A program made the position numbers and the translations under genes. A model generated the notes under the pieces. The model was not told the DNA's origin, ran no database searches, and worked only from the letters and a program-made list of their open reading frames with translations. Shown here one piece after another: positions 1-64,000 of a DNA stretch of 64,000 bases (the stretch's first letter is position 1; every line of letters begins with the position of its first letter). The stretch is from Candidatus Altimarinota bacterium (GTDB lineage: Bacteria > Patescibacteriota > Gracilibacteria > Absconditabacterales > Absconditicoccaceae), in NCBI GenBank assembly GCA_041694255.1, contig JASMTN010000021.1, positions 231-64,230 on the forward strand. The letters run 5' to 3'.

Positions 1-1038
1 TACTGCTTTATATATAGTATTTACAAGGTTTTTATACTCTATATTTTCATTTAAAAGATACATATTATAGAATGCTCTTCTTATAAGTCTTCTTAGTACA
101 TAACCTCTTCATTCATTTGAAGGTATCACACCATCAGAAACTAAAAACAACCCTGCTCTTATATGATCAGTAATTATTCTAAATCTTCTAGTTACTTCTT
201 GTTCTTTTTCAGTAAGTTTTATTTCTTCTTTTTCATAAGGAGGATAAGAAAATCCAGTATATTTTTCTATAGCTTTTATAATTCATTCAAAAAGATCTGT
301 TTCAAATATAGTACTTTTATCTTGTAAGATCATAGCAAGTCTTTCAAGACCCATACCTGTATCTATATTTTGTTGAGAAAGAGGTTTGAAACTACCATCT
401 TGATTTTTATAATATTCCATGAAAACATTGTTCCAAATCTCAGTATATCTATCATTATCATCCATCAACCAATCATTTGGTCAAAAATCATCACCTCTAT
501 CATAATAAAACTCACAATCAGGACCACAAGGACCAACTTCACCTGCAGGGCCCCACCAATTTTCTTGCATAGCTCTTATCCTAGTATCAGGAATTCAAAG
601 TTCATTTAGTATTTGCCTACTTTCTTTATCTTCTTCCAATCATAAAGCTTCATCTCAAGCATATATAGTAGCTCATAATTTTTCTATAGGTATATTACAT
701 ACTTTTGTAAGATATTCTACAGACCAAGTTATAGACTCTTTTTTAAAATAATCTCATAAAGACCAATTTCACATCATCTCAAACATAGTAAGATGTCTTT
801 CATCCCCTATCTCATCTATATCTGGAGTTCTTATACATTTTTGTATATTAAAAAGTCTAGTTCCTTGTTCATGAGTTTTTCAGCTAAGGTAAGGCACAAG
901 TTGTTGCATTCAAGCTACTGTAAATAAACTTGTTGTATCTCATGTAGGTATCAAAGGAGCTGGATTAAGTTCTTTATGATTTTTTTCATTTTCTAACCAA
1001 AAGTTATTCCATCATTTTCTTATATCTTCAGACAGCAT
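1..1038 (-). CDS. alaS: alanyl-tRNA synthetase, N-terminal catalytic part (gene continues beyond window start)
   Basis: Code-25 translation from ATG (1038-1036) gives [14 protein letters not shown]... It contains AlaRS motifs [36 protein letters not shown] and [14 protein letters not shown]. Several in-frame TGA are read as Gly. Frame agrees with track ORF 283-468. Confidence 0.9.
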
Positions 1039-1128
1039 AAAAATAATTATAAAAAATAAATATAAGTTCTAGAATAACTTTAATTACTTATTTTTCAATA
1101 TTTTTTATATATTAAAGAATATTATAAA

Positions 1129-1542
1129 TCATAAAAAAACAACAATTGATAATATCATGCCTGAAAATATGTCTATATAAAAGTGTTTTTTTAAAACAAT
1201 CCTTGAATATGCTATAGAAAACCAAAATATTAGAAAAAATATAGAATAAACATGGTCTAAATAATAAATACTTAACAAAAACAACAAAAAAGTATTTGCA
1301 GAATGTAATGAAGGAAATGCAGATGCCCTAATTTTTGTTATAAAATTATAATAATTCATCTTTTTAGGTCTTTCTTTAAAAAAAAAGTATTTTAAAAAAA
1401 TACCTATAAAAGCCTGTATTAAAAGAACAGCAACAATATTAAAAATTATATTTTGATGAAATTCAATCATATAAAAAAATAATAATAATGGTATTATAAA
1501 TAAGATTTCTCAAAGTTTTGTATAAAATTTCCAGAAAATCAT
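1129..1542 (-). CDS. small PAP2-like membrane phosphatase (putative)
   Basis: Track ORF 1129-1470 extends through one TGA to ATG at 1542. Hydrophobic. The SAFPSLHSANTF stretch resembles the PAP2 SxPSGH motif. Confidence 0.45.
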
Positions 1543-1559
1543 GAGATAAAATTAATATA

Positions 1560-2021
1560 TTAAATCTTTTTTTTAAGTTCTTTATAAAAATCATAATATC
1601 TTCTAGGAGATATTACAATATCATGTGTTTGAAGCTTTATTAATATTCATCTTGAAGAAAATCAGTTTAAATATAATATTTTTTTATTGGGATTAAAGTT
1701 CATTCAAAACTTATAAGAAAAAGGGATTTTCGATATTTTTCAAATTTCTCTTATTTCATTAAAAGGAATCTCATATATTTTTTTCTTACTTGGTGTTTTG
1801 ATATATAAGCTATCTTCTTTTATCTCATATAAGTACTTAAAATATTTAATAATATAAAATAATAATATTCAAAGAAAAATCATAAAAAAAATTAAATTAT
1901 AATCATAATTATAATCAAAAAATGGAGCAAAAACTATAAAGTTTAAAACTCCCATAAAAGACAATCATACAATAAGTATAAATACTCTAAATCATAAACT
2001 GTTTTCTCATATTGATCTCAT
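1560..2021 (-). CDS. hypothetical membrane protein
   Basis: 153-codon code-25 ORF (MRSIGENSLGFRVFILIVGLSF...). N-terminal TM helices. Length is divisible by 3. Tightly packed next to neighbours. Confidence 0.4.
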
Positions 2022-2022
2022 T

Positions 2023-3309
2023 TTATTTATTTATCAAATTAATAAGTGTTTGCTTGGCAGTATCAAGTTGATTGTCAATATGATCTTTAGTATAAGAATC
2101 AGAATCAAACTCAACTTCCTTATCAGGTTTTATACCATTTCAAGGCTTTATACCATCAGACACATTCTTATCATCTGGAGTAAACCATTTTCAGATTGTA
2201 TATTTTAAACTACTACCATCTCTAAATTCTTCTAAAGTTTGTATAGTTCATTTTCAAAAAGTTTCTGTTCATACAAGTTTAGTATTGTTTTTATTATTTA
2301 CTTGGATTGCAGCAGTTATAATCTCTCATGCAGAAGCTGTATAAGCATCTATCAAAATTACTGTTGGGAAATTATGTAACTTGCCATCATCAGTTGCTTT
2401 AAGCACCCTATTATAAAAATCATCTTTATACTTTGTCTTCACAACAACATCATCTTTTTGAGACCACATAGATCATATCTTATAACCAACTTCAAGATAT
2501 CAGCCACCATTTCATCTAAGATCAAGTATAATTCATTTTGCACCATCAGATAGCAACTCATTAGATTGTTTCACAAATTGTGTATAAGTTTCTTCTCATA
2601 TTGATGATATACTTATATATCAAAGTTTTGCATTATCATATTCTAAAATATTTGATTCTACAGATTTTATTTCAACTTTATCTCTTGTAACTTCTATTTC
2701 CATTATCTTTCAATCTCTATTTATTGTAAGATTAACTTTTGTTCATTTTGGTCATTTAATTTCATTTACACCTTCTCACAAAGGAAGATTTGAAAGATTA
2801 GTACCATTTGCCTTAAGAATAACATCAAGAGGTTTTAAACCAGCCTTAAATGCTGGACCATCTTTTATAATTCTTTCTACCATAATACCCTCAGGCACTT
2901 TGGTAACTACTGCTCATATACCTTCAAAGTCTGAGCTTCATTTAAGCTCTTCATGTAAAGAAGTATTATCTTCAGAAGTTAAATAAACAGTAAAAGGATC
3001 TCAAATAGCTGAAACATAGGCCTGTATAGCCTTATCCCACATTTTATCTCAAGATATATAACTTGTATTTATATATTTTTTATCAAGAACCTCTTTTATA
3101 TTATTTATTTTTTCAAGTTTTGAATTATTATTAAGAGAGTTAGTTGTTGATCATATATTTTTTATAGACTCTCTTAATAAGTTTATCTTATCACTAACAG
3201 TAGATGAAAAATCAACATTAGATATTGTTTGGTTATTTGTTTGATTGTAAGAAAAAAATATTCACAAACTAACAAATATTCACAATAAAAAAGAAATAAT
3301 ATATTTCAT
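2023..3309 (-). CDS. S41 carboxy-terminal processing peptidase with PDZ domain
   Basis: 428-aa code-25 ORF. Signal/TM N-terminus, PDZ-like IIKDGPAFKAGLKPLDVILKANG, then ILDLRGNGGGY and the TASAGEI catalytic Ser region. Confidence 0.8.
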
Positions 3310-3377
3310 AATAATATGGATTAAAAATTAAATATAATAGTTACAAATATAATTTTATAACATATTTTTTGTAACTA

Positions 3378-4136
3378 TTAATTAATATCAACATTAACTT
3401 CATCTATATCTTCTTCATCTACCATAACTTCAGACAATGAAGCAATATATAGAAAATCATTTCACATTTCATAAAACTTATAGTATATTTTTTCAAATAA
3501 TGCTGATACAAATGGGATTACAGTAAATGCTAATATAGGAGGAAAAAATAAAATATTCTTTTCAGCAGATCAAGCTTGTTTGGAATATAAAGAATATATT
3601 ATAAAAAATCAAAGTATAGTTATAATAAAACCAAAACTATTACCTATAACATATACAGGTGAATAATTAGGATTTTTAACAACATCCATACTTATAAAAG
3701 ATATATATATAGCAAAAAATAAATGAAAACCATAAACAACAAAAAGATAGTCCATGCTTGATAAAATAGTTCATACATAAAAGTATAAAAATAAAAATGG
3801 TATAAATAAAAGTAAATTTACCGAAAGTATAGAAGAAGACATTACCTTCATGTCATAATAATCCTCATTCCATATAACATTATAAATTCATGATAAAACT
3901 ATAGATCATACAATAGAAGTTAATGAAGCTATAGCAATAAAAGAAAGCCATACAAGTGGAGAAAAACTTATGTTACTTGTAGAGTTCTTAACAGCCTGAT
4001 CTATACTTGATCAAAGTCATATAAACATAACAAAAACAAGTGCTGAAAAAACTAATCACACTATTATTCATATAACAACTTTTCAAATCAAAGATATTCA
4101 ACTAGGATTTGTAGGAACATTATTTTCAACTTGCAT
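3378..4136 (-). CDS. multi-pass membrane protein, unknown function
   Basis: 252-aa code-25 ORF with about 6 hydrophobic segments and an acidic C-terminus. Confidence 0.45.
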
Positions 4137-4142: not shown

Positions 4143-4679
4143 TTAATTAACTTTTAAATCTTTTATATTATCTAACATATTATTTAAGGCTTCTTTTGAC
4201 TGTGAAGTATAAGCTATTGTATATAATCTTTTTTTACTATCAAACAAATAAGCTTGCACACCATAGTAATCTGCATTTGAATCACTATCTGCAAATAGAT
4301 TATCAAATACCTCATAAGTAAAGTAATATATATTACCTTGTTTTTTTTTAAATTTTGCTTTTTCTAATATATTTGCACCTGGAATTTGTCTTTTAAACTT
4401 ATCAGAAACTATTGTAAAAAATTTTTCCTCATTATTTGGATATGAAGAACTATATTCAAATATAATTAAAGATTCTTTAGAGGAACCTGCATTCTTAACT
4501 TTATTATAAGACTCCAATACTTGATAATCTTTTATAGAAAAAGTTTGATCTACAGTAGTAAAATTATTAGATATATCAAAAGAAAAAGGTCAAAAACTTA
4601 TAAGCCTAGACTCTTCACTATCTCATGAACAGCCAATCAATGTAAACAATAAGGTCATGTATATAAAAAGTTTTTTCAT
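4143..4679 (-). CDS. putative lipoprotein
   Basis: Track ORF 4143-4517 extends through TGA to MKKLFIYMTLLFTLIGCS (a lipobox-like LIGC). Confidence 0.55.
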
Positions 4680-4978
4680 TATGCTCATATAATAAAATAA
4701 TAAACAGCTGAAAATATAACTCATATAACTCAACCTATTATAAATCACTGAATATATGATTTATCTTCATATTCTTCATTAGATTTAACAGATTTTATAT
4801 AACCTATTATATAACCTATTATAAGTCAAAGTAATATAAAGTAAAAAGGCAACATAAATGGACCTATAACATCAACAATACTTTCTGGCATAACTCACTT
4901 TATTCTAAGTTGAAAAAGAACTATAATTATAGTAAGTATAAAGAAAATAAGTTTTATAATATCAAAGTATGCTGCCAT
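4679..4978 (-). CDS. small membrane protein
   Basis: 99-aa hydrophobic code-25 ORF. Its stop overlaps the start of the downstream gene (TAATG). Confidence 0.4.
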
Positions 4979-5482: not shown

Positions 5483-6049
5483 CTAAAGTTGACTCATAAG
5501 GTTATCCAATTTACTTTTCTTTTCTCTTTCTTCATCTTTTTTGAGTTTTTTAACTTGTATATTATCAAGAACAAGCTGCCATTTATCTAAGTTTGAAGTT
5601 CTTTGAGTAAGGACAATATCTTTTTCTTTTTCATCTTCATGAGCAAGTATCTCAAGATTCATTTGTTCTTCTATATATATCTCATACATTCTAGCTATCT
5701 GAAAGCCCCATAATTCATGAAGTTTTTTAGCTATATGTTTATCACCAGCTGACACATTGATAACAAGCTCAAGCTTTCAACTATCCTCATTATTATCAAG
5801 TGCATAACCACTAGAAAAAGAAGATATTACAAGACGAATCAAAAGATCCCAGTTAAATTCTTCATCTATATACTCTGGATAAAGTAAATCTAAGTCACCA
5901 ACATTAAATTTTGAAAGATAATCTTTATATATTATAGTATCCTCAAAAGCTTCTGGAAGTGGTTCCACAAGTTTTTCATATTTTTCAACTATATCTTTTT
6001 TTTCATCATTATCCCTCAAGTTGTCTATAAATTCTTTAAAATCAAACAT
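5483..6049 (-). CDS. hypothetical acidic protein
   Basis: Track ORFs 5777-6049 and 5483-5755 are one frame joined by an in-frame TGA at 5774-5776 (...NNEDS-G-KLELVINVSAGDKH...). Confidence 0.5.
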
Positions 6050-7274: not shown

Positions 7275-7832
7275 ATGAATATAATCAATTTAATAAAAAA
7301 ATATCGAACATTTTTTTCTCTAGTATGATTTGTTTTATTTTGGGTGTTTTTATTTAACCAATATAGTCCTCAAGAAATTGTAAGTTATATATGATTAGAA
7401 AATGCTTACCTAGTAGTTTTTCTTGTATGAGCATTTTGATGAATATCCACATTAACAGTCACACATTTTTATACAACTATTATAACTTTAACAATATGAT
7501 GAGCAAACCCTTTTTTAATTTGAATATTTGCATGAACTTGAGCTAGCATATGAGATAGTATATTCTATTATCTTTGAAAAAAATGAAAAAAATTAACTAC
7601 TAGCTTTCAAAATAAAATAAAACCAATTTCAGATTGGATTCAAAAACAACCTAAAAAATTAATTCAATTTTTTATTTTTCTATATGCTTGATTTATTCCA
7701 TTTCCAAAAGATTTTTTAATGCTTGCATTAGCATTTTCATGATTTTCATATAAAAAGATAATAATCCCTCTTTTGATTTGAAATATTATTAATTTAAGTA
7801 TATTAGCTTATATAAGTTGAAAATTTTTATAG
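7275..7832 (+). CDS. DedA/VTT-like membrane protein (putative)
   Basis: 185-aa hydrophobic code-25 ORF with a GASIGDSIFYYLGKKG segment. Confidence 0.45.
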
Positions 7833-8270: not shown

Positions 8271-9651
8271 AAATAATCAAACTAAATTATTTATAATATT
8301 ATCACTAATTTCTGTTTTTGTAATTGTAAAACTTATGTGATGAACAAATTTTATTGCAACATTTTTAACTTTATCACTACCATTGCTTTTTATACTTTGA
8401 AAGTCAGCCTGAAAACTTAGAGTATTTGCCATAATAAGCTGAATTTTACTTATATGAGTAGATTTTTTTTTAATGTTGCTTCTTATAGTACCTACAAGCT
8501 CTTATGATATTGAAACTAAAAACCATTACCAACAAAAAGAAAATTATATGAAAATATATAAAAAAGATGAAGAAAGTAAACTTAGATGAATGGCTATGAT
8601 GATTAAAAAAGAAAATAAAGATCGAACTAAAATTTCAATAGCAGATTATAAAGAATGAGAAAAAATAGACCTTGAAGAAAATGATAAGATATACTTTGTA
8701 TGAAGAAAATCTTATAAAACTTATGCTGTTATATATCTTTGGGATGATAGTATACTTAGAATAACACCTTGAACAAAACTTAGTCTAACAAAAATTACAA
8801 AAGATCTTAATAAAATGTCAGAAAATCAAACACATATAAAACTTGAACAGTGAAATGTATGGTTCCGTGTTTTGAAGATGGTAAAAGATTCTAGTAATAT
8901 GAATATAGAAACATGAAAGTGACAAACACTTATTATAAGGTGAACTGCATGACTTGTAAGTAAAGGTCAAAATGAAACTCAAGCTATATGATATAAACAT
9001 TTTATAGAAGTTAAAAATAATGATACTTCTAAGATAATAAAAGCTTGAGAATGAGCAATTATAAAACAAGATAGCATAGATATAAAAAAAGACATACAAG
9101 ACATGTTAGGTAATATTTCATTTGACACTTCATTAATAGAAGAATTCAAAATTAAAGACCAAGAATATATTGCAAATATGAAAGAAAATTTAATGAACTA
9201 TATAGAAGAACAAGTTTGAGCTATAAAATGATTTGAAAGTTATAATAAGCTTAAAAAGTGGAAAGTAAAAGTATTTTCTATATGAGATGAAAACTATAAA
9301 GAATATGCCAAAAACCTTATAAATTATGAATATTTAGTTTGAAAAAGTGAAAAATTTACCTCAAAACTTTCTAAAAATGAAAATTTAATTTTTTTAGCAT
9401 CACAACTTGAAAAACAAAAAGTAAAAACTGCCTATTTATATGATAATGTTAAGAGAAACATTCAAGACTCTGATATTTATAAAACTTATGTAATCAACCT
9501 TTGAATAGAATGAAAAATAAAGGATGTTAATAAAAGTTTAAAAGAAGATGTTCAAACTATGATAGAAAGGTATTGAAATGATAATAAAAAATTATTTGAA
9601 GATATAGATTATTGAATAGATAGCTTAATAAATAAATATTTAAATTTTTAG
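8263..9651 (+). CDS. membrane-anchored hypothetical protein
   Basis: 462-aa code-25 ORF with many TGA. N-terminal TM helices then a soluble K/E-rich region. Length is divisible by 3. Confidence 0.45.
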
Positions 9652-9658: not shown

Positions 9659-10636
9659 ATGAAAGTAGAAAATGCTAATATAGAAAAAAAGAAAGTTGAA
9701 AAAGTTGTTAAAAAAGAAAATTCTATAAGACCAGAAGATTTTGATGATTTTATATGACAGGAAAATATTAAAAATATACTTAAAAGCTGAATTATAAGTT
9801 CTATTAAAAGAAATGATAGTTTAGGTCATGTACTTTTTTCTGGTGATAGCTGATTTTGAAAAACTACTCTATCAAAGATAATAGCAGGCAACCTTGGTAA
9901 AAATATAAAAATCATAACTGCCTATGCTATGGAAAAACCATCAGATATGATAAGTGTTTTAAATCAGCTTGAAGAAGGGGATATACTTTTTATAGATGAG
10001 GTTCATAGACTTAAACCAAAGATAGAGGAGATATTATATATAGCTATGGAAGATTTTCGTGTAGATATAGTTTTACAAGATGAAACTACTTCTATCCCTG
10101 TAAATAAGTTTACTCTAGTTTGAGCAACAAACAAGTTAGAAAGTTTATCAGATGCTTTTAAAAATAGATTTGTATATAAGTTTCACCTTAAGCCATATGA
10201 AGAAAAAGAAAAAGAAAAAATACTAGATAAATATTTGAAAGAATTTAATATAAATTGTAAAAAAGAGATTGTAAAAGAACTTAGCTCAAAAAGTCTACCA
10301 GTTCCAAGAGAGATTAAAAATCTTGCAATTAGAATAAGAGATTACCTTATAGCATCAGGTTTTAAAGAAAATAATATACATATAGACAAAGATATATATA
10401 AAGAATTACTCAAAAATTTAAAATTATGAGAATATTGACTAAGTGATTTACAAAAAGAATATATTAAAATACTTGAAACCAAAGAAATATTATGAGTTTG
10501 AACAATATCAAGTATGTTAAATATAGCTGAAAAAGTCATAGAAAAAGATATAGAACCTGTTTTAATCAACTTATGAATCATAGAAAAGACAAAAAAATGA
10601 AGAAAACTATTAAAACAAATTGACAATTTAAATTAA
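9659..10636 (+). CDS. ruvB: Holliday junction DNA helicase RuvB
   Basis: Contains RPEDFDDFIGQENIK, Walker A SGDSGFGKTTL, Walker B ILFIDEVHRL and FTLVGATN. Frame agrees with track ORFs 9929-10123 and 10235-10429. Confidence 0.9.
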
Positions 10637-11444: not shown

Positions 11445-13487
11445 CTACCCCATCAACTTAGAATAGTTAATTTTTTTATCTACAAGTTTTTTAAGTTTTG
11501 TTTCTTTTTCAAGTATATTATGTTTAAGTATGTGCTTTGCTTCTGCCCTTGTACTTTCAAGTAGATGTATATCTTTTAGTGCTTCTTCTGGTAAGTCCAT
11601 ATCTCAAGATTGTTGAGTACCAAGTATAGTACCTGCTCATCTTAAATTTAAGTCTATTTCTGCAAGTTTAAAACCGTCAGAATATTTTTCCATATACTTT
11701 AATCTTCTGTATGATTCTCAAGATTTACTTTTTGTAGCAAGAAAACAGTAAGATTGCAAACTTCATCTTCCTACTCTTCATCTTAACTGATGCAACGAAG
11801 ATAAACCAAATCTTTCAGAATTTTTAATGATCATAATAGTTGCATTTGGAACATCAACTCAAACTTCTATAACTGTTGTTGATACAAGTATCTTTGTCTT
11901 TCAAGATTGAAAATCTCACATAACTTTTGCTTTCTCATCTGCTTTCAATCTACCATGCATAAGTCCTATCTTATCTTTCAATTCAGGGAACATTTCTACA
12001 ACTTTTTCATATTCTTGAAAAGCAGAATTTACATCTTCCAACTTCTCAGACTCTTCTATAAGTGGAGAAACTACATACACTTGCTGGTCTTGCCTTATCT
12101 TATTTATCAAAAATTGTTTAAGTTTTATATATTCATCTTCTGATATAACTTTTGTATGAATTTCTTGTCTTCAAGGTGGAAGCTCATCTATAATAGTATT
12201 TTCAAACTCTCAAAAATAAGAAAGTGCAAGTGATCTTGGTATAGGTGTAGCAGTCATTTGCAACATATGAGGATGTCATTGACTTGAAAGTTTTACTCTT
12301 TGTTTTACTCAAAATTTATGTTGTTCATCAACAATTACAAGTCATAGATTTTTAAATTCTACATCATCTTGTATAATCGCATGAGTTCAAACTACAAAAT
12401 CCAAATTACCCTCTCTTAAATCTTGTTTGATCTGGTCTTTCTCACTTTTTTTAGTAGATCATGTTAAAAGAGCCATCTTATATCATAAAGGAAGTAAGAA
12501 CTTTGAAATGCCTGCTATATGCTGTTTAGCAAGGACTTCTGTTGGAGCAAGAAAAGCTATCTGTTTATTATTTTGTTTCATAAGATAGAAAGCTACTGTA
12601 GTTGCTACAACTGTTTTTCAACTTCATACATCTCATTGTAAAAGTCTCATCATAGTACTTCAACTATGCATATCATCTATTATAGTTTTGATTGCTTTTT
12701 TCTGTGCTTTTGTCAGTTCAAAAGGTATATAAGTTAAAAATTCTTTTATAATATCCCGTTGTGGTTGTGTTGCTTGTCATTTTTTTTCATCTACAGCATT
12801 GATATTTGTAATAAGTTGCCATATAAGAAGTTGTTCAAAATTGAACCTATATTTTGCTTGTTTCAAAGCTTCCATGTTATCAGGAAAATGTATATTTTTT
12901 AAAGCCTGTTTTATTCACAAAAGATTATATTTTTCTATCAAGTAAGAAGGCAAAAATTCTTTATACAAATTATCTATATCATCTATTTTATCAGATATTT
13001 TTTTTTGAAACCAAGATCATTTTATTCATGAAAGATCAGAATATATAGGAACTATCTTTCAAACCAAATTTACATTTACAAGGTCATCATCAAAATTATC
13101 TGAAAGTATCTCAGGAAACCAAAAAGTATATTTACCATAAGAAAATTTAGGTTTTCATGAAAGTAATATAGTATTTCATTTTTTTAAAGTTCTAAGAAGA
13201 TATGTTGCATTCATAAAACTTGCATAAGCAATATTTTGATCTTTATCTTGAAGTTGAAACTCCATTATCTTTTTTCATCTTGGTGTTTTGATAAAATTTG
13301 TATCTACTATCTTTGCTTTTACTACTGCCTTCACTCATTCTTGAAGCTCTCATATGCTTTTGATACTTGTTCTATCTTCATAGTCTTTTGGAAAATAATA
13401 GAAAAAATCCTTAGGTTTTTCAATCCCCTTTTCTTTAAGAGTATTTATATATTTTGCTGATGTTCTTAATCGAGACCTTAATTCCAT
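11445..13487 (-). CDS. recG: ATP-dependent DNA helicase RecG
   Basis: 680-aa code-25 ORF. Contains LQGDVGSGKT, VIVDEQHKFG, MTATPIPRS, HGRLKADEK and QLRGRVGRG. Frame agrees with track ORF 11916-12110. Confidence 0.9.
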
Positions 13488-17692: not shown

Positions 17693-18406
17693 TTCATGCA
17701 TAATAAGTAAAAAATTATAATCTTTTGATTTATTTACCCAAAATCAAGTAGCTTGACAATTATGTTGTTTTTTAATAATATCCTCTTTCAGTACAAATCA
17801 AACTTTTAAAAACCTTTCCATTACTTTAAAAGCAAGTGGTTGATACAATTTTTTTCTTCTTGTATCTCAAATAAGTATAGCACAATAAGATCACTTTTTT
17901 AAAACTCTAAAAGATTCTTTAGCAACTTTTTCTATTTCATTACAAAACTGATCTATATCATGTATATTTGATAAATCTTCTTTTATTTCTCAATCAGAAT
18001 ATTTAATTATATCAGAATAAGGAGGATGAGTTAGCACAAAGTCTATACTTTCATCTTTTATTGAAGTTTTTTTTCTTCTTGCATCTCAAAGTTTTATATC
18101 AATATTAGGTTTATTTTCTGATTTAAAATCAAGTAAACTTTTTGTTAGCTTAACTGAGTTAGGATTTATATCATATCATATTAAATTTCTGTTTAAAAGT
18201 TTAGCTTCAATAGCTGTTGTTCAACCTCAAATCATAGGTTCTAATATAGTATCTCATTCTTGAGAATATCTTAAAATTAGGTTTCTAACAACCTCAGGTG
18301 ACCAGTTTCATCTATATTTACTATTGTGAGTTGCTCGATTTCATCTTCTTGGAAAAGACCACACAGTTGTACATTCAAGTTCAAAATTTTCTGGTTGTTT
18401 TTTCAT
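17666..18406 (-). CDS. DNA methyltransferase, N4/N6 family (DpnA-like second methylase)
   Basis: 246-aa ORF. Contains WSFPRRGNRATHNSKYRGNWSPEVVRNLILRYSQEGDTILEPMIGGGTTAIEA and THPPYSDI. Starts directly after the REase stop. Confidence 0.75.
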
Positions 18407-29656: not shown

Positions 29657-29730
29657 AGCGGATGACGGGACTTGAACCCGTGCAAGCAGAGCTGAATTCT
29701 GCTATGCTACACCAATTACATCACACCCGC
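29657..29730 (-). tRNA. tRNA-Gly (anticodon UCA), UGA-decoding tRNA of genetic code 25
   Basis: GCGGGUG acceptor (G1-C72, C2-G71, G3-C70) and U73 discriminator, as in tRNA-Gly. Anticodon stem GCAGA/UCUGC with loop AUUCAGC, giving anticodon UCA. Confidence 0.85.
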
Positions 29731-29901: not shown

Positions 29902-31167
29902 CTAAAAATCCCAACTTCATTTCATAGATGAACTTTGAGTATAGTTTGTAACTGTACTTTCAAAAAAGTTTCATTTTTCACTATTATGATCTTGCAACCT
30001 TGTAAGGTGCTTATAAGGATTTTCTGTATATTCTGGATATAATGGATCTAATCATATCATTTCAAGTCTTTGGTTTGCCAACCATTTTGTATATTTATCT
30101 ATACTATCTTTATTTATTCATATAATTCATTCTCATATAATATGATTTGACCAAGATATTTCTTGATTAACTGCAGTATCAAACATTTCATATATAAGGT
30201 TTTTATCGAAAACTTCTGGAGACTCTTCCTTTAGATCTTTAATTAAATGTGCAAATAATGTTACATGAGTAAGCTCATCTCTTCTTATATAATTTATCAT
30301 TCTTTGACTTGCAACCATTTTTCACATATCTGCTAAGGTATCAAAATAAGCAAATCCATTATAAAAATATAAGCTTTCAAGTAGAAAATTACCCACAACT
30401 GCCCTGAAAAAATTTTTATCTGTTTTATTATCAACAAAGTCTTGATATATATTTCATATAAAAGTTATTCTATCTAATAGATGCTTATCTTCATTCCAAA
30501 AGTAATATATTCCATCTCTTTTATCTGCAGGAACAACACTTTCAAGTATCGTTGCATAGCTTTGAGAATGTATGGCTTCCTGATAGTCTTGTATAGCAAG
30601 AACTAAGTTTATTTCTGGAGCTGTTATAAAGTCATTTATATTTGGGAGATTTAGTGTTTGTATACTATCTAAAAAAATTAGGAATGACAATATTCAATTA
30701 TAAGCCCTTTTTTCTTCAGTTGTTAAAGAATTCTTATATTGAGTTCAATCTTCTCATAATCACTTAACTTTTTCAGGAACCCAAAAATTTCAGACCATAA
30801 CTTGATATAAATTTTTAGCCCGAGTATATTTTGTGTTATTAAGTTGAAAAATTTTTGTTGTTGATCATTTTATAACTTTTCTTTGAGATACATCATCATT
30901 ACCTTCTGGATTAAAAAGCAATACTTGTCACATAACTTGTTCTCAATCTTTAATAATATCTATAGTTCAATGTTCTTTATATATCAAATCAATTTGTCAT
31001 GTTATATTCTCAACCAATTCATCTATTGTTTTTGATTGATATGAAATTTTAATTTCTGACCCGTTAACACTAAGTGTTTCAAAAACCTCTCCATAATAAT
31101 AATCATCAACCCTATCTATTTTGATAGTTATATGCAAATTATTTAAGGGATTTATATGCAACTCCAT
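29902..31167 (-). CDS. nrdB: ribonucleotide reductase beta subunit (R2) with an N-terminal extension of about 80 aa
   Basis: 421-aa code-25 ORF. The R2 core starts near ...LLFNPEGN...NFWVPEKV, with EAIHSQSY and RDELTHVTLF iron-ligand motifs. Frames agree with track ORFs 30133-30318 and 30454-30690. Confidence 0.85.
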
Positions 31168-40381: not shown

Positions 40382-41413
40382 ATGCAACATGGAGAATTTC
40401 AATATCTAAATTTGCTAGAAAAAATAATAAATGAATGAATTGATAAAAATGATAGAACATGAGTTGGTGTAAGATGAATATTTGGTTCTCAAATGAAGTT
40501 TGACCTTACAAAATGAGATTTTCCACTTCTTACAACAAAAAAAACTTTCTTAAGGTGAATAGTTGTTGAACTTATATGGCTTATAAGATGAGAAACAAAT
40601 ATAAAATATCTAGTAGATAGAAATGTACATATATGGGATGAATGGCCTTTTCAAAATTGGTTAGATAATTCAAATGAGGTAAATGCTACAAAATATCCAA
40701 GATATTCTAAAGAATGGTTAGAACTTAAACAAGAATGGATAGAAAAAATTAAAAATCTTGAAGAAACAAATGAATGGGTATTAAAATGGTGAGACCTTTG
40801 ACCAGTATATGGACATCAATGGAGAAACTTTTGAGGTTGAGAAAGCTTTTCTTCTTGGGTAGAAGATATATCAAAAAGACAATGGTGAACACCTTGATGA
40901 GTAAGTGCCCTATCAAATACAAGTGGTGCTGACCAACTTAAACAAGCTATAGAAAAAATTAAAAATAAACCTACTGATAGAAGAATTATAGTAAGTGCTT
41001 GGAATCCATTACAATTTGATATGATGTTATTACCTCCTTGTCATATGTTCTATCAATTTAATGTAGATACAACAAATAAAAAATTAAACTTACAAATGTA
41101 TCAAAGATCTGCTGATATGTTCTTATGAGTTCCTTTTAACATAGCTTCTTACTCTGCTTTATTGCTTATAATAGCAAAACTTACTTGACTAGAACCTTGA
41201 GAATTTACTCATACTTTATGAGATGCTCATATATATTCAAATCATTTTGATCAAGTTAATACACAACTTTCAAGAGAGCCTTTCCCTTTTCCAAAACTAG
41301 AAATTAAAAAAGAACTTAATACTATAGAAGATATAGAAAATCTTGAATGGGAAGATTTTGCTCTTATATGATATGAATCACATGAAAAAATAAAAGCTCC
41401 TGTTGCAGTTTAA
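40382..41413 (+). CDS. thyA: thymidylate synthase (ThyA) with internal insertions
   Basis: 343-aa code-25 ORF. Contains [78 protein letters not shown] and GDAHIY. Trp is encoded by TGG throughout. Confidence 0.9.
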
Positions 41414-50235: not shown

Positions 50236-51558
50236 TTATAATATTTTACTATATTTTTCCATAAGCAAATCAGCATTTATTTTATTAATAATTTCTTGTA
50301 CAACTCAAACTACAATAATTACTCAAGATCAAGAAACTACTACTGGAACTGCATCAAGTCATCAACTTCTTACAGTATCTTGTATAAAAGGAATCCAATT
50401 AATAACATAAGTATATATACCTATTAATGCAAGTCATATACCTCACCAAAATGAAAGATGAGCAAGAACATCACTTATATATTTTGCTGTATCTTCTCAA
50501 GGTCTTATTCATGGAATATAACCTCATCTTTTTTGTATTTGTTCAGACATTCTTTCAGGTTTAAACATAACCCAACTATAAAAAAATGTAAACATAACTA
50601 TAAGAACAAAGTACAATCATACAGCTAAAACATGAGGATTATTTGTATATATATTTAAATAATTTTCAACAAAGCTTTTAAAACTTTCAGCTCATGGAGA
50701 TGTAGGATTCAATTTATATATTATATTTCCTAAAAGATATGGAAATGAAACAAATGCCATAGAAAATATAATAGGTATCATTCATACTGGATTTAAAGGA
50801 ATAGGCAATGTTGCTGTTTCTTGTATTTTACCTGCTCTTGCATAAGTTATAGGAATTTCTTTTTTTGTTCTTATTAAAAGCACAGCAAGAACTATAAGAA
50901 CAAGCATTATAACAAGAATAAAAACAAGAATAGACCAAAGATTTGATCATGAACCTGGATTCATAAAGTTCATAAAAGAACCAGTCATTCATGATATAAT
51001 TGAAGCAAAGATTAAAAAAGATATACCATTACTTATACCTCTTTCTGTTATCATTTCACCTAACCATATAAGCAATATAGTTCAAACTGTAAGAATAAAT
51101 GCTGAAGATAAAACTAATGAAAAATTAGAAGTATCTATAACTCATGGTATATAGCTTGATATTAAGTATACCATTCATATAGCTTGCATAAATGCCAATG
51201 GTAAAGTTAGCCGTCTTGTATATTGTTGTATTTTCATTGTTCAAGTTTCTCACTCTTCTTTTAATTCTTCCAACTTAGGAACAACAACAGTAAGTAACTG
51301 TATTATAATAGATGCATTAATAAATGGAATCAATCAAAGTGCAACTAAAGAAAATTGCTCTAAAGATCATCACATTAACATAGCAAAAAACTCAACTCAT
51401 CAAGTATCACCAGACACAGCAGTCTTTAAAGCATCTATATCAACAAATGGAACTGGCATAAACACAAAAAGCCTATACAATACAAGTATAGCTATTGTGA
51501 ATAAAATCTTATTCCTTATATTTTTTGAAGTAACAATATGTTTTATTGTATTTAACAT
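50236..51558 (-). CDS. secY: preprotein translocase SecY
   Basis: 440-aa multi-TM code-25 ORF in the canonical position after rplO. Contains ...[19 protein letters not shown].... Confidence 0.9.
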
Positions 51559-51608
51559 CTGCAAAAATTATTTTAAATAAATTCAAAAATGGACCTTAAA
51601 ATAAAGGT

Positions 51609-56234: not shown

Positions 56235-56264
56235 AGATAAAATATTTAATTATAAAACATTAAA

Positions 56265-56757: not shown

Positions 56758-57456
56758 TTATTTCTTTACTCTAGGTTTTCTTGAAGATTTTTTTGTAGAA
56801 GATTTTTTAATATTTTCTTCTATATCTCATTTATATATCCATACCTTAACACCAAGTATACCATACTTAGTTACAGATGGAACATAATGATAATCTACAT
56901 CTGCTCTTAAAGTTTGAAGAGGTATTCTTCATTCTTTGAAAGTTTCAGATCTAGCCATTTCAGCACCATTTAGTCTACCAGCTATATTTACCTTAATTCA
57001 CTTAGCTCATTTCCCCATAACTTTTTCTATAGTTCATTTTATAACTCTTCTATAGGGCATTCTTTTTTCAAGTTGAGAAGCTACATGATCAGCCATTATT
57101 TTTGCAGACATTTCTGGAAGTCAAACCTCTTTAATAATAACTTCGAAATCTTCTCAAAATTGTTTCTTTAAAGACTTTTTAAATTGTTCTAATCTTGCTC
57201 ATTCTTTTCAAAGAACTATTCCAGGTTTAGCAGTAAATATCAAAACATCATTTTTTGTTTTTTCACCACTAATTCATTTTCTAAAAACAACTTTTGCTAT
57301 CCCAGAATGCTTATAAAAATCTTCAACAAAATTTCTTACTTTCAAATCTTGAACCATATATTCTGCTGAAAGTTTTTTTGTAGGAGCGAAATATTCACTT
57401 ACCCATCATCTAACAATACCAGTTCTAAACCCTCTTGGGTCAACCTTTTGTCACAT
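56758..57456 (-). CDS. rpsC: 30S ribosomal protein S3
   Basis: [14 protein letters not shown]... (second codon is TGA=Gly). KH domain and ...[12 protein letters not shown]... Confidence 0.95.
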
Positions 57457-57461
57457 ACATA

Positions 57462-57881
57462 TTAATTAGAATTTAAAACCACTCTAATGAAAGATCTATA
57501 CTTTTCATATCAGTGTACTCTAGACCTTGACGCAAATCTCATTCTTTTGATTTTCATTCATCTTCACAAATCTATTCTTTCTATATAAAGATTATCCACA
57601 GACAAAGAAGCATTATTTTTTGCATTATATAAAGCAGATTTTACATGTTTATATAATATTTTAGCTGCTTTTTGAGGTAAGTTATCTAATATAGTTAAAG
57701 CCTCTTGTGCATTTTTACCTCTTATAACTTTTGTAACAACAGAAAGTTTTTTAACAGATGTATCAGCATAAGACTTTTTTGAAGTTCTAGAAGTTATACT
57801 AAATGATTTACTTTCTTCAAGTCCTGAGGCCAAAGAATTATTTTTCATTAATTTTTTTCTTTCCACAAACTTTTTAGCCAT
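57462..57881 (-). CDS. rplV: 50S ribosomal protein L22 with N-terminal extension
   Basis: Track ORF 57564-57881 extends through TGA. Contains ...IRGKNAQEALTILDNLPQKAAKILYKHVKSALYNAKNN... Confidence 0.9.
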
Positions 57882-57968
57882 TATTTAACTAATAATAATT
57901 TAAAAACTCCTCACATGAGGCAAAGAAGTCGGATTTATCCGGTTACTCCTTTCTTTTATAAAGATTTA

Positions 57969-58226
57969 TTAAAACGGATGTCACCTAAATACCTTTGTAC
58001 CTGCAAATTCTCAAAGCTTATAACCAATCATATCATCATTTACATAAACTGAAACAAATTCTTTTCAGTTATGTACTGCAAATGTATAACCAACCATTTC
58101 AGGAATTATAGTACAAGATCTATCCCAAACCTTAATAGGCTTCTTATTTCAAGACTCTTCCATTTTTTCAACCTTTTTTAGAATCTTTGGATTTACATAA
58201 AATCATTTCTTCAATGATCTAGCCAT
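57969..58226 (-). CDS. rpsS: 30S ribosomal protein S19
   Basis: MARSLKKGFYVNPKILKK...FAVHNGKEFVSVYV...GEFAGTKVFRGH. Confidence 0.95.
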
Positions 58227-58249
58227 TTATATTCATTTAAGTTTTAAAA

Positions 58250-59116
58250 CTATTTATTATTTTGAGGATATAATTTTCTCTTTCTACCTTGAACAATAAA
58301 CTTATCTGACCACTTATTTTTCTTTCTTGTTTTTTTACCGTAAGGAACAGGCTTACCAACAAAGTTTTTTGGTGTTTTCATACCTATAGAAGTATGAGCT
58401 TCTCAACCACCATGAGGATGATCTACTGGATTCATATTTATACCAAGAACATGTGGTTTTCTACCTTTCCATCTTTGTCTACCAGCTTTACCTATAACAA
58501 TATTTTTTCTTTCCTCATTACTAACTTGTCAGATAGTTGCCCAACAAGTATCATGATACTTTCTAATTTCACCAGAAGGCATTTTAACAAAAACAAGCTT
58601 TTTAGCCTCATCTTTACCTGTTATAGTCCCAAAAACTCATGCAGATCTAAGTAATTTAGCCTTTGTATTTGGAGTTACTTCAAGTGCATATATAGTAAAA
58701 CCTTGAGGAATATCTTTTAATTGTTTAGTACAACCATTCTCTAATGGAGCTTTTTCTCAAGTTTCTATCATATCACCAACTCTAACTCACTTCCAAGCTA
58801 TTACATACCTTTTTTCTCAATCTTTGTAATTAATAAGGCTAATCCTAGCAGTTCTGTATGGATCATACTCTACACTAGCAACCTTTCAAGGAACTCATAT
58901 TTTATCATACCTTCTAAAATCAACAATTCTATACAATCTTTTATGACCACCTCATCTTGATCTAGAAGTAATCCTACCATGATGATTTCTACCACCTGTA
59001 GAACCTATAAATTTAGTTAATGATTTTTCAGGTTCTGTTTTTGTTATCTCATCAAATGTATATCATGTTAAAAACCTTCTTGAAGGAGTATAAGGTTTAT
59101 ACAATTTTATTCACAT
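58250..59116 (-). CDS. rplB: 50S ribosomal protein L2
   Basis: ...[22 protein letters not shown]...[12 protein letters not shown]... Confidence 0.95.
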
Positions 59117-59140
59117 CTATCATAGCTCATAAAAATAAAA

Positions 59141-59629
59141 TTAAGCAACTTTATCTAATGAAGGCATTTTTTGACCTTCCTTTAAAGTAACAACAGCCTT
59201 TACATAAGCTCTTCTTACTAATCATCTTCTTTGTCTATTCTTATAAGGAGTTTTAATGATATTTATTTTCTCAACATCTATTTTATATAATGTTTTTAAA
59301 GCCTCCTTAACATCGTTTTTATTTGCTCATTTCATTACTTTGAAAGTTATCTTTGAAGTTTCTTTTACGTCTTCTTTCACCTTCACTCTTTTTTTATCCA
59401 AAGTATTACCTGATTTAAAAGTTACAGTATAATTTTCCTTTTCTTTATTACCATTTTTATCCAATACAGGAGTTTTAACTTTAGATACTATCTTAACTTG
59501 ATTATCAGTTTTTTCAGTTTTTATAAAACCTAATATAATATCAGTAGGAGCAAATTGTCATATTTTTTTTGTTTCCAAAACTTTTTGCCCTCTTCTTTTC
59601 AACTTTTGTTTATACAATGATGTTTGCAT
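59141..59629 (-). CDS. rplW: 50S ribosomal protein L23 with about 60 extra residues
   Basis: 162-aa ORF. The L23 core is ...KITFKVMKGANKNDVKEALKTLYKIDVEKINII...RAYVKAVVTLKEG. Confidence 0.85.
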
Positions 59630-59639
59630 ATTTTCTTTG

Positions 59640-60281
59640 TTATTTACTTAAAAAAGTGTCTTCTATTTTTTGTAAACTATCTTTCATAAAAACAACCTTT
59701 TTGTAAGATAGTAAATCGAAAGGATTTACATAAGCAGCACTTACAACTTTAACACCAGGAATATTTCTAAAAGATCTAGTAACCATATCATTTTTTCATG
59801 GTATAACTAATAATACTTTTTCTCCTGTTAGCTTAAGGTTAGATAGAACATTGTTAGCATTTTTAGTTTTGATATCTGTAAAATCATAACTATTCAATAC
59901 TAAAGAATCTTCATCTTTAACTCTAACAGATAAAGCAGAAAATAAAGCTTTTCTTCTTTGTTTTTTTGGCATATTTTTTATATAGTTTTCATTTCAAGTT
60001 GGTCAAAATATAACTCAACCTCACCTTCTTATTCATGAAGCAGCATCACCAACTCTGGCATTACCTGTACCTTTTTGTCTATATAACTTTCTACCTGATG
60101 AAGTAATTTCTCATCTAGCTTTAGTTTTTGCTATATTTTTTCTAGAATTAGAAAGTTGCATAACAACAAATTCATGCATCAATGAAGTATTTATATTTTC
60201 ATCAGAAAATATATTTTGATTCAATTGAACTTCTTCTAACTCTTTTCATTTAACATCATATACTTTTACAGAATAAGTCAT
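59640..60281 (-). CDS. rplD: 50S ribosomal protein L4
   Basis: ...[33 protein letters not shown]... Confidence 0.95.
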
Positions 60282-60308
60282 TGAAAGTTATTTTAATTAT
60301 AAATTTAT

Positions 60309-60890
60309 TTACTTATATATTCTTAATAAAGAATTTCTTGATCATGGAATAGATCATTTTACAACCAACACATTATCACCATCAGGCAGTGAATGAGTTG
60401 CAACTACATTTATATTTTTTACAGTTACATTTCTGTGTCACATATGTCAAGGTAGTGGATGATTTTTATTTACTCTATTTGGTTTCATATTACCTATACT
60501 TCAAGGACCTCTATGGAATTTACTACCATGAGTTGCTCTTCATCAACCAAATCAAAATCTTTTCATAACTCATTGAAAACCTTTTCATTTTGTTGTAGAC
60601 TTAACAGTAATATTATCTATATCATCATTCATAGAAACCTTATCTCATACTTTATATTCATCTACATTTTCAACTTTAAACTCCCTAACATACTTATAAG
60701 TTGTTTTTCATTTTTTTTCTTTTTTAACTGCTCATACAACAACAGCATTATAACCATCATTTTCTTGAGTTTTTATTCTAACAACTTCTTGATCATCTAA
60801 GAATTTTAATAATGTAACTGCCTCCATCTTGTCATCTAAAAGCATTTGTGTCATTTCTTGCTTTAAACATAAGAAACCTCAATTCATCAT
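60309..60890 (-). CDS. rplC: 50S ribosomal protein L3
   Basis: ...[32 protein letters not shown]... Confidence 0.95.
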
Positions 60891-60915
60891 ATTTTTTATA
60901 TTATCTATCTAAACT

Positions 60916-61239
60916 CTATTTTGGAAGATCTATCATAACTCCAACAGGTATTTGAATATTATTCAAATATTCAACAGTCTTTTCTCATAACTCCTCTATA
61001 TCAACAAGTCTAGAATAAGTTATCCTTTCAAATTGTTCTCTAGCATCTTTATAAACAAAAGGAGCTTTCAAAACTGTATAACCTTTCTTTTTTTTAGGCA
61101 ATGGTATAGGTCATTTAATTTTTGCTCATGACTTTATCAAAACTGCCATTACCTTTGAAACAGTAGCATCCAACATTCTTAGTTCATATGACCTGAACTT
61201 TATTCTCATAGCAGGCTTATTATTATCTTTATTAGCCAT
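60916..61239 (-). CDS. rpsJ: 30S ribosomal protein S10
   Basis: ...[20 protein letters not shown]...GPIPLP...[15 protein letters not shown]... Confidence 0.95.
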
Positions 61240-61318
61240 TAAATTTTTCCTTATTAAATTAAATATTTATTAAAGACAATAAGCCCCTTACAATGGTAAG
61301 AGACTTATAGCTTTAATA

Positions 61319-62500
61319 TTATTCATTAACTTTTGTAACTACACCAGCACCAACTGTTCTACCTCATTCTCTAATAGCAAATCTTAAACCTTCTTCCATA
61401 GCTACTGGATATAGCAATTCAACATTTATTTTTGCATTATCACCAGGCATAATCATTTCTGTACCTTCTGGTAATGTTACTGTACCAGTCACATCAGTAG
61501 TTCTGAAGAAGAATTGTGGCTTATATCATGTCATGAATGGTGTATGTCTACCTCATTCCTCTTTCTTAAGAACATAAACCTCAGCTTCAAATTTATTATG
61601 AGGAGAAGCTGTACCAGGCTTAGCTATAACTTGACCTCTTTCTATTTCATCTCTATCAATACCTCTTAACAATAAACCAACATTCATACCAGCTTCAGCA
61701 CTTTCATGTTGTTTATGAAACATTTCAACTCATGTTATAGCAGTCTTTTTAGCATCTTTACCAAGACCAACTATTTCCATCTCATCACCAACTTTAACAA
61801 CACCTCTTTCTATTCTACCTGTAGCAACAGTACCTCTACCTTTAATTGAGAATACATCTTCTATAGGCATAATAAAGTCCTTATCCATATCTCTATCTGG
61901 AGAAGGTATCTTTTCATCAACTGCAGCCATAAGATCCCATATACATTTAGCATCTCAAGACTCATCAGTAGGATTTTCCATAGCTTTAAGAGCAGAACCT
62001 TGTATTACAGGAACATCATCACCAGGATATCCATATTTAGATAAAAGATCTCTAACCTCTTCCTCAACAAGCTCTATTTCTTCCTCATCATCAACCATAT
62101 CACATTTGTTTAAGAAAACAACTATATATGGCACATTAACTTGTTTAGCTAACAATATATGTTCTCTTGTTTGAGCCATAGGTCCATCTGGAGCAGCCAA
62201 AACTAAGATAGCACCATCCATTTGAGCAGCACCAACAATCATGTTTTTAATATAATCAGCATGTCAAGGACAGTCAATATGAGCATAATGTCTATTTTCT
62301 GTTTCATACTCAACATGAGCTGTATTAATTGTAATACCTCTCTCTTTCTCTTCTGGAGCTTTATCAATATCTCAAAACTCCATACCTTTTGCAAGTCATT
62401 TTGTAGCTAATACTTGTACAATAGCAGATGTAGTAGTAGTTTTACCATGATCCACATGCCCTAATGTACCAATATTAACGTGCGGTTTCATTTCAGCCAT
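61319..62500 (-). CDS. tuf: elongation factor Tu
   Basis: 393-aa code-25 ORF. Contains [17 protein letters not shown] (G=TGA 62264-62266), NKCD and REG-G-RTVGAG (TGA 61364-61366). Frames agree with track ORFs 61730-61930 and 61955-62242. Confidence 0.97.
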
Positions 62501-62526
62501 AATAATCTTTTAATTAATAAATAAAT

Positions 62527-62557
62527 GTTACGTAAATATATATAGTTACGTAAATAT
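62527..62557. promoter_or_regulatory. tandem GTTACGTAAATAT repeats with palindromic TTACGTAA cores upstream of tuf
   Basis: Exact 13-nt copies at 62527-62539 and 62545-62557, which is 27-57 nt upstream of the tuf ATG. Confidence 0.35.
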
Positions 62558-62594
62558 TTTATAAAATATTTACACACAACTTTAAGCCATCTAA

Positions 62595-62671
62595 TGGTGG
62601 GCATGGATGGACTCGAACCATCGATCTCACGATTATCAGTCGTGTGCTTTAACCAGCTAAGCCACATGCCC
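62595..62671 (-). tRNA. tRNA-Ile (anticodon GAU), CCA encoded
   Basis: Anticodon loop CUGAUAA. Ends ...GCCCACCA. Confidence 0.9.
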
Positions 62672-62684
62672 TAAACCAAACATA

Positions 62685-62758
62685 TCGGGGTGGCGGGACT
62701 CGAACTCGCGACCTTCTGGTCCCAAACCAGACACTCTAGCCATCTGAGCTACACCCCG
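62685..62758 (-). tRNA. tRNA-Pro (anticodon UGG)
   Basis: CGGGGUG acceptor. Anticodon loop UUUGGGA. Confidence 0.9.
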
Positions 62759-62769
62759 TAAATATAAAA

Positions 62770-62844
62770 TGGTGCCGAAGGGCAGGATCGAACTGCCGGC
62801 ACAAGGCTTTTCAGGCCTCTGCTCTACCACTGAGCTACTTCGGC
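62770..62844 (-). tRNA. tRNA-Phe (anticodon GAA), CCA encoded
   Basis: Anticodon loop CUGAAAA. GCCGAAG acceptor. Confidence 0.9.
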
Positions 62845-62945
62845 ATAATACAATATTACTATACTTTTTACTTTTACAAAAGTGATCTATAATATAATAA
62901 TATGAAAATAAATTTCAAGTACTTTTTATAGTTTTTATATATTTA

Positions 62946-63686
62946 TTATTTTAACAATATACTCCATCTTTTTTCTTTTAAAAATAAGTTAGTATTTCAA
63001 TGTCAAACAAACTCTATAGTATATTTATTATCCTTACCTCATAATAATTCATCTAAAAAATCCCAATTTAAAACTTTTTGAAATCTTATATTTTTTATTT
63101 TTTGGTTTATTATATTTTCAAAATGATAAGCATCATAGCTTGTAGGTATTATAGTATCGATATTGAAACTTAATAATCTATTAAGGTCTGTTTTTATAAG
63201 TTTTCTTATCATCCAATCTCTTTTACTTAAAGCTATTATATTATATTTCCAAACTCATATATTTTTTTTATATATTGAAAATCATTTAAAATGTTTAATA
63301 TTTTTTTGTCTTTTAGTTGGTGTATAATCTAATTGTTCTATATAGTTTTGAACATATTCCATATCAAGATCATTACCTAAAAGTCATATCTTTCAAACTA
63401 AAGAATATTTTAAGCTTTGTTTTATTATATTTTGATATATAGGAAGTATAAAATTTTCATTTTTATATTTTAATTCCCACATAGGAGGCAATATTATCTT
63501 ATCTACTTTTTTTTCAAGTAAAATGTCTATAGCCTGTTTGATATATTTTTCTTGAAAATCTATACTTTTATCGTCCAAAGGCCAGGCATCTTGATTCATA
63601 TAAACTATGATATTATGGTTGTATTGTTTTAAAGTATTTAAAAAAGAAAGGTTTTCTAATCAAGATGTAAATATTCAAATTTTCAT
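62946..63686 (-). CDS. glutamate racemase-like protein, divergent (catalytic Cys positions apparently substituted)
   Basis: 246-aa code-25 ORF. MKIGIFTSGLENLSFL... parallels MurI MKIGxFDSGxGGLxV. The region expected to read IACNTA reads ILPPMWE. Frame agrees with track ORF 63393-63599. Confidence 0.35.
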
Positions 63687-63704
63687 ATACTTATTATTAT
63701 TAAA

Positions 63705-64000
63705 TTAAATATCTTCTAATTTTTTCAAAAACTCTTTCCTTCAAAGCTGTTTATTTTCCTGAAAAAAAGATTCAAAATCATCTCATATCAAAGCAATATA
63801 CTTATTATATAATTTTTTAAATATTTGTTTTTGTGAGAAACTAAATCCAAAATAATCTATATAATTATCTAAATTATCTTTTTGAGGGATTGTTTTAAGA
63901 TATGATTTTATTGATTCTAATATATTTTTAAAGTCTATTTTATCTAAATTATCTAAAAAAATATTTTTATCAAACTTTTCTCATATATTATCAACAGGTG
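63705..64000 (-). CDS. hypothetical protein, C-terminal part (gene starts beyond window end)
   Basis: Open code-25 frame from the window edge to TAA at 63707-63705. Confidence 0.3.

Follow-up and report, generated by a model that had tools for sequence, protein, structure and literature searches.

Predicted use of UGA for glycine and of CGA/CGG for tryptophan in a UGA-recoded genome of the Gracilibacteria/Absconditabacteria clade

Genes and coding regime of the window

The stretch analysed here (the window) comprises 64,000 nucleotides of a Candidatus Altimarinota bacterium contig (C21:231-64230), and the question addressed is which amino acids are specified by its abundant in-frame TGA codons and by its rare CGA and CGG codons. 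The window belongs to an assembly of 934 kb (42 contigs, 23.9% G+C, 92.8% complete).

The first-pass annotation of this DNA proposed that the standard code breaks the genes into fragments and that reading TGA as a sense codon restores them. This is borne out: open reading frames (ORFs) of at least 150 aa number two under table 11 and 53 with TGA as sense. The 53 table-25 ORFs are densely packed, lie for the most part on the minus strand and carry between 0 and 83 in-frame TGAs apiece. When the genes are called anew with table 25, as had been recommended, their boundaries come out correct. Across the 62 gene proxies that overlap the window there are 764 in-frame TGAs, representing 66% of its glycine codons. 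Tables 4 and 25 yield identical ORF structure; because ORF lengths cannot tell these two codes apart, the residues aligned to TGA were tabulated. The features on which this part of the argument draws are as follows (a lower-case g in a motif marks TGA).

1..64000, whole-window coding regime: 62 genes, with TAA and TAG as the only stops
61319..62500, minus strand: tuf (EF-Tu), 8 in-frame TGAs against 31 GGN
62264-62266, minus strand: TGA in the EF-Tu motif DCP-g-HADY, verified
61364-61366, minus strand: TGA in the EF-Tu motif RE-g-GRTVG, verified
56758..57456, minus strand: rpsC (S3), 12 TGAs, one of them codon 2 (M-g-QKV)
58250..59116, minus strand: rplB (L2), 11 TGAs, one of them the third glycine in HPHGGGE
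11445..13487, minus strand: recG, with three TGAs in its Walker A motif gDVgSgKT (12612-12626)
9659..10636, plus strand: ruvB, Walker A motif GDSgFgKT at 9842-9865
40382..41413, plus strand: thyA, 13 TGG (tryptophan), 18 TGA (glycine) and no CGN

Every motif quoted in the first-pass annotation is found in place, with TGA at a glycine position. One trivial correction concerns EF-Tu: TGA at 61364-61366 is the first glycine of the pair in RE-g-GRTVG, not the second.

Residues aligned to TGA, the UGA decoder and termination

In a comparison with 200 kb of E. coli K-12, glycine lies opposite 383 of 552 context-filtered TGA positions, followed by alanine (43) and serine (20); tryptophan is outside the top six residues, and TGG lies opposite tryptophan. 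A scan of public genomes with L2 provided 80 ribosomal-cluster loci, 68 of them standard-code. When columns count as conserved if no fewer than 10 homologues of standard code align and their consensus reaches 80%, and with gene proxies only, the consensus at TGA is glycine in 134/143 conserved columns, a figure matched by the GGT control (131/141). On the window's own contig the count is 78/81. Tryptophan is the consensus in none of the 143. Unfiltered stop-to-stop ORFs, some of them antisense, place TGA opposite glycine in 125/130 columns at 90% consensus; in that tally, antisense ORFs gave spurious signals of CTA as R and CAA as P. Aligned to the codons of a complete relative of 1.13 Mb (G016), TGA lies opposite TGA 2392 times, GGT 443 times, GGA 280 times and GGG 84 times. 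In a screen of all 64 codons, no reassignment beyond TGA and CGA/CGG was seen. The Codetta-like tally that had been suggested as a check therefore places TGA in glycine columns, and neither in tryptophan columns nor at gene termini. The accompanying statement that tryptophan is consistently TGG holds for most positions, but tryptophan is apparently specified by four CGA and three CGG codons of the window as well.

Codon usage bears on the same assignment. Per 1000 codons the genome uses TGA 47.0 times, GGT 11.1, GGA 3.0, GGC 0.6 and GGG 0.8, making TGA about 75% of glycine codons genome-wide, with 12,866 in-frame TGAs; in G016 the share is 71%. Earlier work had already remarked on heavy use of TGA by this group (PMC10746230, with reference to Campbell 2013). 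The share depends on the class of gene. In the ribosomal-protein and EF-Tu block (window 51600-62600, minus strand), TGA makes up 45% and GGT 48% of glycine codons, as compared to 76% and 17% in the rest of the genome (p = 2e-29). This lower TGA share and higher GGT share suggest that GGT is kept by translational selection in highly expressed genes.

The first alternative to be weighed against glycine is tryptophan (code 4), the meaning that UGA has in Mycoplasmatales and several low-G+C endosymbionts. The very low G+C content of the present genome (24%) and the ORF structure, which code 4 shares with table 25, are both compatible with it. The column tally rules it out: glycine dominates the conserved TGA columns, and tryptophan is the consensus of none. 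Furthermore, a TGA frequency of 47 per 1000 far exceeds any plausible tryptophan content, given TGG at 6.6 per 1000, and the acceptor end of the tRNA described next (G1:C72, C2:G71, G3:C70, U73) fits tRNA-Gly and not tRNA-Trp (A1:U72, G73). Code 4 is thus barely credible here.

If UGA is read as glycine, the reading requires a tRNA with the matching anticodon. One such gene lies within the window, and two further loci elsewhere in the genome emerged from a search for U34-modification enzymes by which tRNA-Gly(UCA) might be limited to UGA.

29657..29730, minus strand: tRNA-Gly(UCA), putative UGA decoder, 74 nt, anticodon loop AUUCAGC, short variable loop of 4 nt
C33:6050-7090, minus strand: MnmA
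C11:86192-86899: Der-like GTPase-domain matches

The acceptor stem of this tRNA (GCGGGUG/CAUCCGC) contains G1:C72, C2:G71, G3:C70 and the discriminator U73, which constitute the glycine acceptor identity set, and its 5' half is identical to that of the genome's tRNA-Gly(UCC) and tRNA-Gly(GCC). A separate tRNA-Trp(CCA) on contig C5 carries A1:U72 and G73. Since tRNA(UCA) keeps the determinants of tRNA-Gly, glycyl-tRNA synthetase should charge it. Of 40 relatives searched, 22 of the 24 that belong to the same family have a homologue, as against 0 of the 16 that represent other families of the class. The UCA anticodon and U73 are retained at 23/23 tRNA(UCA) loci, and the acceptor stems show compensatory changes. 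The genome also encodes MnmA, the tRNA 2-thiouridylase. A tblastn search of the genome gave no convincing match to MnmE, only Der-like GTPase-domain hits, from which no conclusion is drawn.

ARAGORN labels this tRNA 'SeC', a name that stems solely from its anticodon. The label is the one point in favour of the proposal that in-frame TGAs are selenocysteine sites or, failing that, artefacts of pseudogenes and assembly errors. The tRNA does not support it: its length (74 nt), acceptor stem (7 bp) and variable loop (4 nt) are unlike those of tRNA-Sec, which has an 8-bp acceptor and a long variable arm. TGA lies opposite glycine and not cysteine or selenocysteine, and 764 occurrences in 62 window genes, or 12,866 in the genome, are too many for either version of the proposal. 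As for artefacts, TGA positions are kept in independent assemblies of relatives, as in the 2392 TGA-TGA pairs with G016. Frequency, column identity and conservation across assemblies refute both versions, leaving them a negligible probability.

Release factors bear on whether UGA still terminates translation. The sole class-I release factor of the genome is release factor 1 (RF1), in which the PET tripeptide is present.

C11:80495-81514 (= L002:1501-2520), plus strand: prfA (RF1), 16 in-frame TGAs

Its profile scores are 432 bits with NF001859 (cut-off 400) and 429 bits with TIGR00019 (cut-off 423). The model of release factor 2 (RF2), the factor that would recognise UGA, gives this RF1 only 251 bits as the code-25 protein and 209 bits in a six-frame search of the genome, below its cut-off of 370, and no RF2 was found. 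The catalytic GGQ of RF1 is itself spelled TGA-TGA-CAA. Among the relatives, RF2 is absent from 24/24 same-family genomes searched, two of them single-contig; prfA is detectable in 23 of these, with 2 to 18 in-frame TGAs each. In the other families of the class, 15 of 16 genomes have a full RF2 and zero in-frame TGA. The check for loss of prfB that the first-pass annotation had suggested thus speaks for UGA = glycine: RF2 was not found and prfA was.

A subtler alternative is that UGA is ambiguous or context-dependent, read as glycine within genes and still a terminator at some of their ends. An A+T-rich genome would mask such TGA stops, as TAA or TAG soon follows in any frame. The stops of the gene proxies are TAA (563) and TAG (148), but the resulting 711/711 complete proxies are a consequence of how proxies are constructed, and the real test is whether TGA is enriched before these stops. 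It is not. Over the last 5 to 20 codons before the stop TGA becomes less frequent, going from 47 to 24 per 1000 in the last five, and GGN falls in parallel, with the TGA share of glycine codons holding at 0.66 to 0.77. There is thus no sign of residual termination at TGA near ORF ends, nor of the use of UGA at gene ends that would have spoken against reassignment. Together with the lack of any RF2 to recognise UGA, the drop in TGA before stops leads us to reject ambiguous termination, which keeps only a very slight probability.

Several features of the window stand beside this argument.

6070-6534, minus strand: TGA-free gene, 154 aa, four glycine codons, all GGN
27969-28319, minus strand: rplT (L20), one unbroken 117-codon frame, codon 23 = TGA (LAKGF, conserved AKG motif)

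The gene at 6070-6534 is the only one of the 62 without TGA and is also one of the two table-11 ORFs of at least 150 aa. TGAs are few as well in its neighbours at 4143-4724 and 5483-6049. At 13.8-21.9 kb and 34-40 kb, the islands of restriction-modification and defence genes show a TGA share that is high, as is normal here, which indicates that they are native to the UGA = glycine code. In rplT, a +1 frameshift at CUU_U is neither present nor needed, and such a call looks like a misreading of AAA CTT GCT AAG TGA TTT, which reads through with TGA as glycine.

CGA and CGG codons and their tRNAs

CGN codons are near extinction in this genome: among 273,000 codons there are 117 CGT, 8 CGC, 39 CGA and 66 CGG. 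CGA and CGG occur at 1.4 and 2.4 per 10,000. The seven in the window, with the genes that contain them, are listed below.

29902..31167, minus strand: RNR beta subunit, CGG at 30820-30822 (codon 116) opposite tryptophan in the KYSWA motif of three R2 homologues with solved structures
12756-12758, minus strand: CGG in recG, opposite TGG in G016
13470-13472, minus strand: CGA, the other CGA/CGG codon within recG
50236..51564, minus strand: secY, CGG at 51211-51213 (codon 116)
7305..7307, plus strand: CGA, presumed tryptophan, codon 11 of a membrane protein (7275-7832), no informative homologue
8623..8625, plus strand: CGA, presumed tryptophan, codon 121 of the ORF 8263-9651, no informative homologue
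18335..18337, minus strand: CGA, presumed tryptophan, codon 24 of an N4/N6 methylase (17666-18406), at a position outside the PDB matches

The CGG in secY lies opposite tyrosine in 25, tryptophan in 18 and I/V/L/F in 9 of 52 standard-code homologues, with no arginine or lysine; in G016 the codon is TAT. Elsewhere in the genome, both CGA codons of the photolyase gene (contig C37) occupy invariant tryptophans, those of TGWMHNR and IDWR in a PDB alignment, and the CGG of EF-G is aligned to tryptophan in 31/31 standard-code homologues.

Codon-by-codon alignment to G016 gives the following counts, with the most frequent partners named.

CGG, 24 aligned: TGG 14, TAT 5, TTT 2
CGA, 8 aligned: TGG 3, CGA 2, TTT 1
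CGT, 35 aligned: AGA 11, AAA 7, CGT 5
TGG, 564 aligned: TGG 387, CGA 33, CGG 8

These data bear directly on the proposal that CGA and CGG have kept their arginine meaning, or have none, so that table 25 would be fully adequate. The two codons are very rare, several of their sites lie within unconserved regions, and ARAGORN names their tRNAs 'Arg' by anticodon, all of which would fit. However, CGA/CGG codons lie opposite an arginine or lysine codon of G016 (AGA, AGG, AAA, AAG or CGT) in 0/32 cases, as against 25/35 for CGT (Fisher p = 1e-10), and opposite TGG in 17/32. They also fill the invariant tryptophan positions of photolyase, RNR-beta and EF-G.

The tRNAs provide a second line of evidence against arginine. 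The anticodons found in the genome include GCG, UCG and CCG.

C17:24791-24865, minus strand: tRNA(CCG), tryptophan-like
C17:68723-68796, minus strand: tRNA(UCG), tryptophan-like
C10:51534-52484, plus strand: tryptophanyl-tRNA synthetase (TrpRS), the single TrpRS gene of the genome
C10:53337-53412, plus strand: tRNA-Arg(GCG), with the TrpRS gene about 850 bp upstream

tRNA(CCG) has A1:U72, G73 and C20, and tRNA(UCG) has G1:U72, G73 and C20. Both lack A20 and resemble tRNA-Trp, whereas tRNA(GCG) and tRNA(UCU) carry the arginine pattern of A20 and A73. The same identity pattern is seen in G016 and in genomes of the same genus. Presumably the single TrpRS charges all three tryptophan isoacceptors. 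Taking codons and tRNAs together, we assign the arginine or unassigned reading a small probability, and the effective code predicted from the sequence is most likely table 25 plus CGA/CGG = tryptophan.

In identity to their same-genus counterparts, tRNA(UCG) and tRNA(CCG) reach 83-89%, compared with 99% for tRNA(UCA). A DNA search with tRNA(CCG) and tRNA(UCG) returned matches in the same genus only, plus a few weak ones. This low count reflects fast divergence and not absence, as ARAGORN finds the diverged genes for both in G016.

Decoding scheme and related codes

Considered jointly, the alignments, tRNAs and release factors make it almost certain, as far as sequence can decide, that UGA encodes glycine and CGA/CGG encode tryptophan in this UGA-recoded genome (0.93 Mb, 24% G+C) of the Gracilibacteria/Absconditabacteria clade. 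The decoding scheme would involve: a dedicated tRNA(UCA), which would read UGA as glycine by virtue of its tRNA-Gly acceptor-stem and discriminator determinants; loss of RF2, leaving RF1 to terminate at UAA and UAG alone; and strong A+T pressure, which may have made UGA the main glycine codon. Superimposed on this change, tRNA(UCG) and tRNA(CCG) would read the near-extinct CGA and CGG as tryptophan, and a bona fide tRNA-Arg(GCG) would keep CGU and CGC as arginine. tRNA-Gly(UCA) presumably avoids UGG.

Some points weigh against this scheme. The assignments are drawn from genes and not from protein. About 6% of conserved TGA columns are not glycine, although the noise level at GGT is equal. The metagenome-assembled genome (MAG) is incomplete (92.8%, 42 contigs), such that the absence of RF2 here is not absolute, although 24 relatives share it. 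For the tryptophan codons, two of the CGA/CGG codons aligned to G016 sit opposite glycine or leucine codons, and CGA is represented by few sites, namely the 8 aligned to G016 and the two in photolyase, one of which is counted among the 8. A low level of ambiguity at CGA/CGG may persist.

The placement of the genome agrees with the scheme. By L2 identity, a single marker, 'Candidatus Gracilibacteria' MAGs are closest (85-86%), followed by SR1 and Absconditabacterales MAGs (59-66%). The first-pass annotation had tied code 25 to Absconditabacteria (SR1) and Gracilibacteria, and these are indeed the closest named relatives. Some low-G+C, TGA-recoded contigs with L2 identities of 58-85% are filed publicly under other taxa (L017, JAMOPZ010000019.1; L009/L010/L015/L032). 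Their labels include one 'Campylobacterales bacterium' MAG and several 'uncultured Candidatus Peribacteria', and these contigs are probably mis-binned or mislabelled.

Reassignment of UGA to glycine has been published for this clade (Campbell 2013, PNAS; Rinke et al. 2013, Nature; Hanke et al. 2014, PMC4032931), and further literature support for the reading comes from PMC13092985. The published systems and the present one share UGA at conserved glycines, a tRNA(UCA) with G1:C72, C2:G71, G3:C70 and U73, loss of RF2 with retention of RF1, a small genome of low G+C content and heavy use of UGA. Nothing essential differs; the UGA majority of about 75% and the use of GGT in highly expressed genes are quantitative features only.

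The second reassignment has likewise been described, as CGA/CGG = tryptophan in Absconditabacteria and CGG = tryptophan in some Gracilibacteria (Shulgina and Eddy 2021, eLife, PMC8629427). Shared with that system are the very low G+C content, the near extinction of CGN, a tRNA-Arg(GCG) in place of ACG, tRNA(UCG) and tRNA(CCG) with G73 and without A20, and CGA/CGG in conserved tryptophan columns. Usage in the present genome (1.4 and 2.4 per 10,000 for CGA and CGG) lies towards the lower extreme of the published range. One difference concerns lineage: in PMC8629427, CGG = tryptophan is reported for only some genomes of 'Gracilibacteria', and here the nearest named MAGs bear that label in NCBI, yet both codons are tryptophan-like.

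Code 4, as found in Mycoplasmatales, Entomoplasmatales and several insect endosymbionts, shares with the present code the loss of RF2, low G+C content and UGA as a sense codon. It differs in the amino acid, tryptophan in place of glycine, and in the decoder, which derives here from tRNA-Gly and not from tRNA-Trp. In contrast to code 4, which merges UGA and UGG, the present code must keep the two codons distinct.

Both reassignments are established for this very clade; the genome adds a further case to a known double reassignment and introduces no new principle. Its practical value lies in annotation. TGA needs to be taken as glycine in all other findings on the window, among them the islands of restriction-modification and defence genes, the gene for RNR and the cluster of tRNAs: under table 11 the genes fall to pieces, and table 4 places tryptophan at 764 glycine positions. 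Table 25 is nearly right, yet it writes arginine at 7 window codons, and at about 105 in the genome, where tryptophan is most likely inserted, and some of these are invariant tryptophans of enzymes. The combined code, table 25 plus CGA/CGG = tryptophan, is encoded by no NCBI table.

The codon data also give a hint of ongoing selection, with UGA at about 75% of glycine codons overall and 45% in ribosomal-protein and EF-Tu genes. Finally, both reassignments of the clade alter anticodon position 36, from NCC to UCA for glycine and from CCA to CCG/UCG for tryptophan. This shared change, together with the presence of only one TrpRS, leads to the tentative proposal, which we regard as possible though rather unlikely, that both depend on synthetases which have ceased to recognise position 36. 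If true, relaxed synthetase specificity at this position would offer codon capture a general route.

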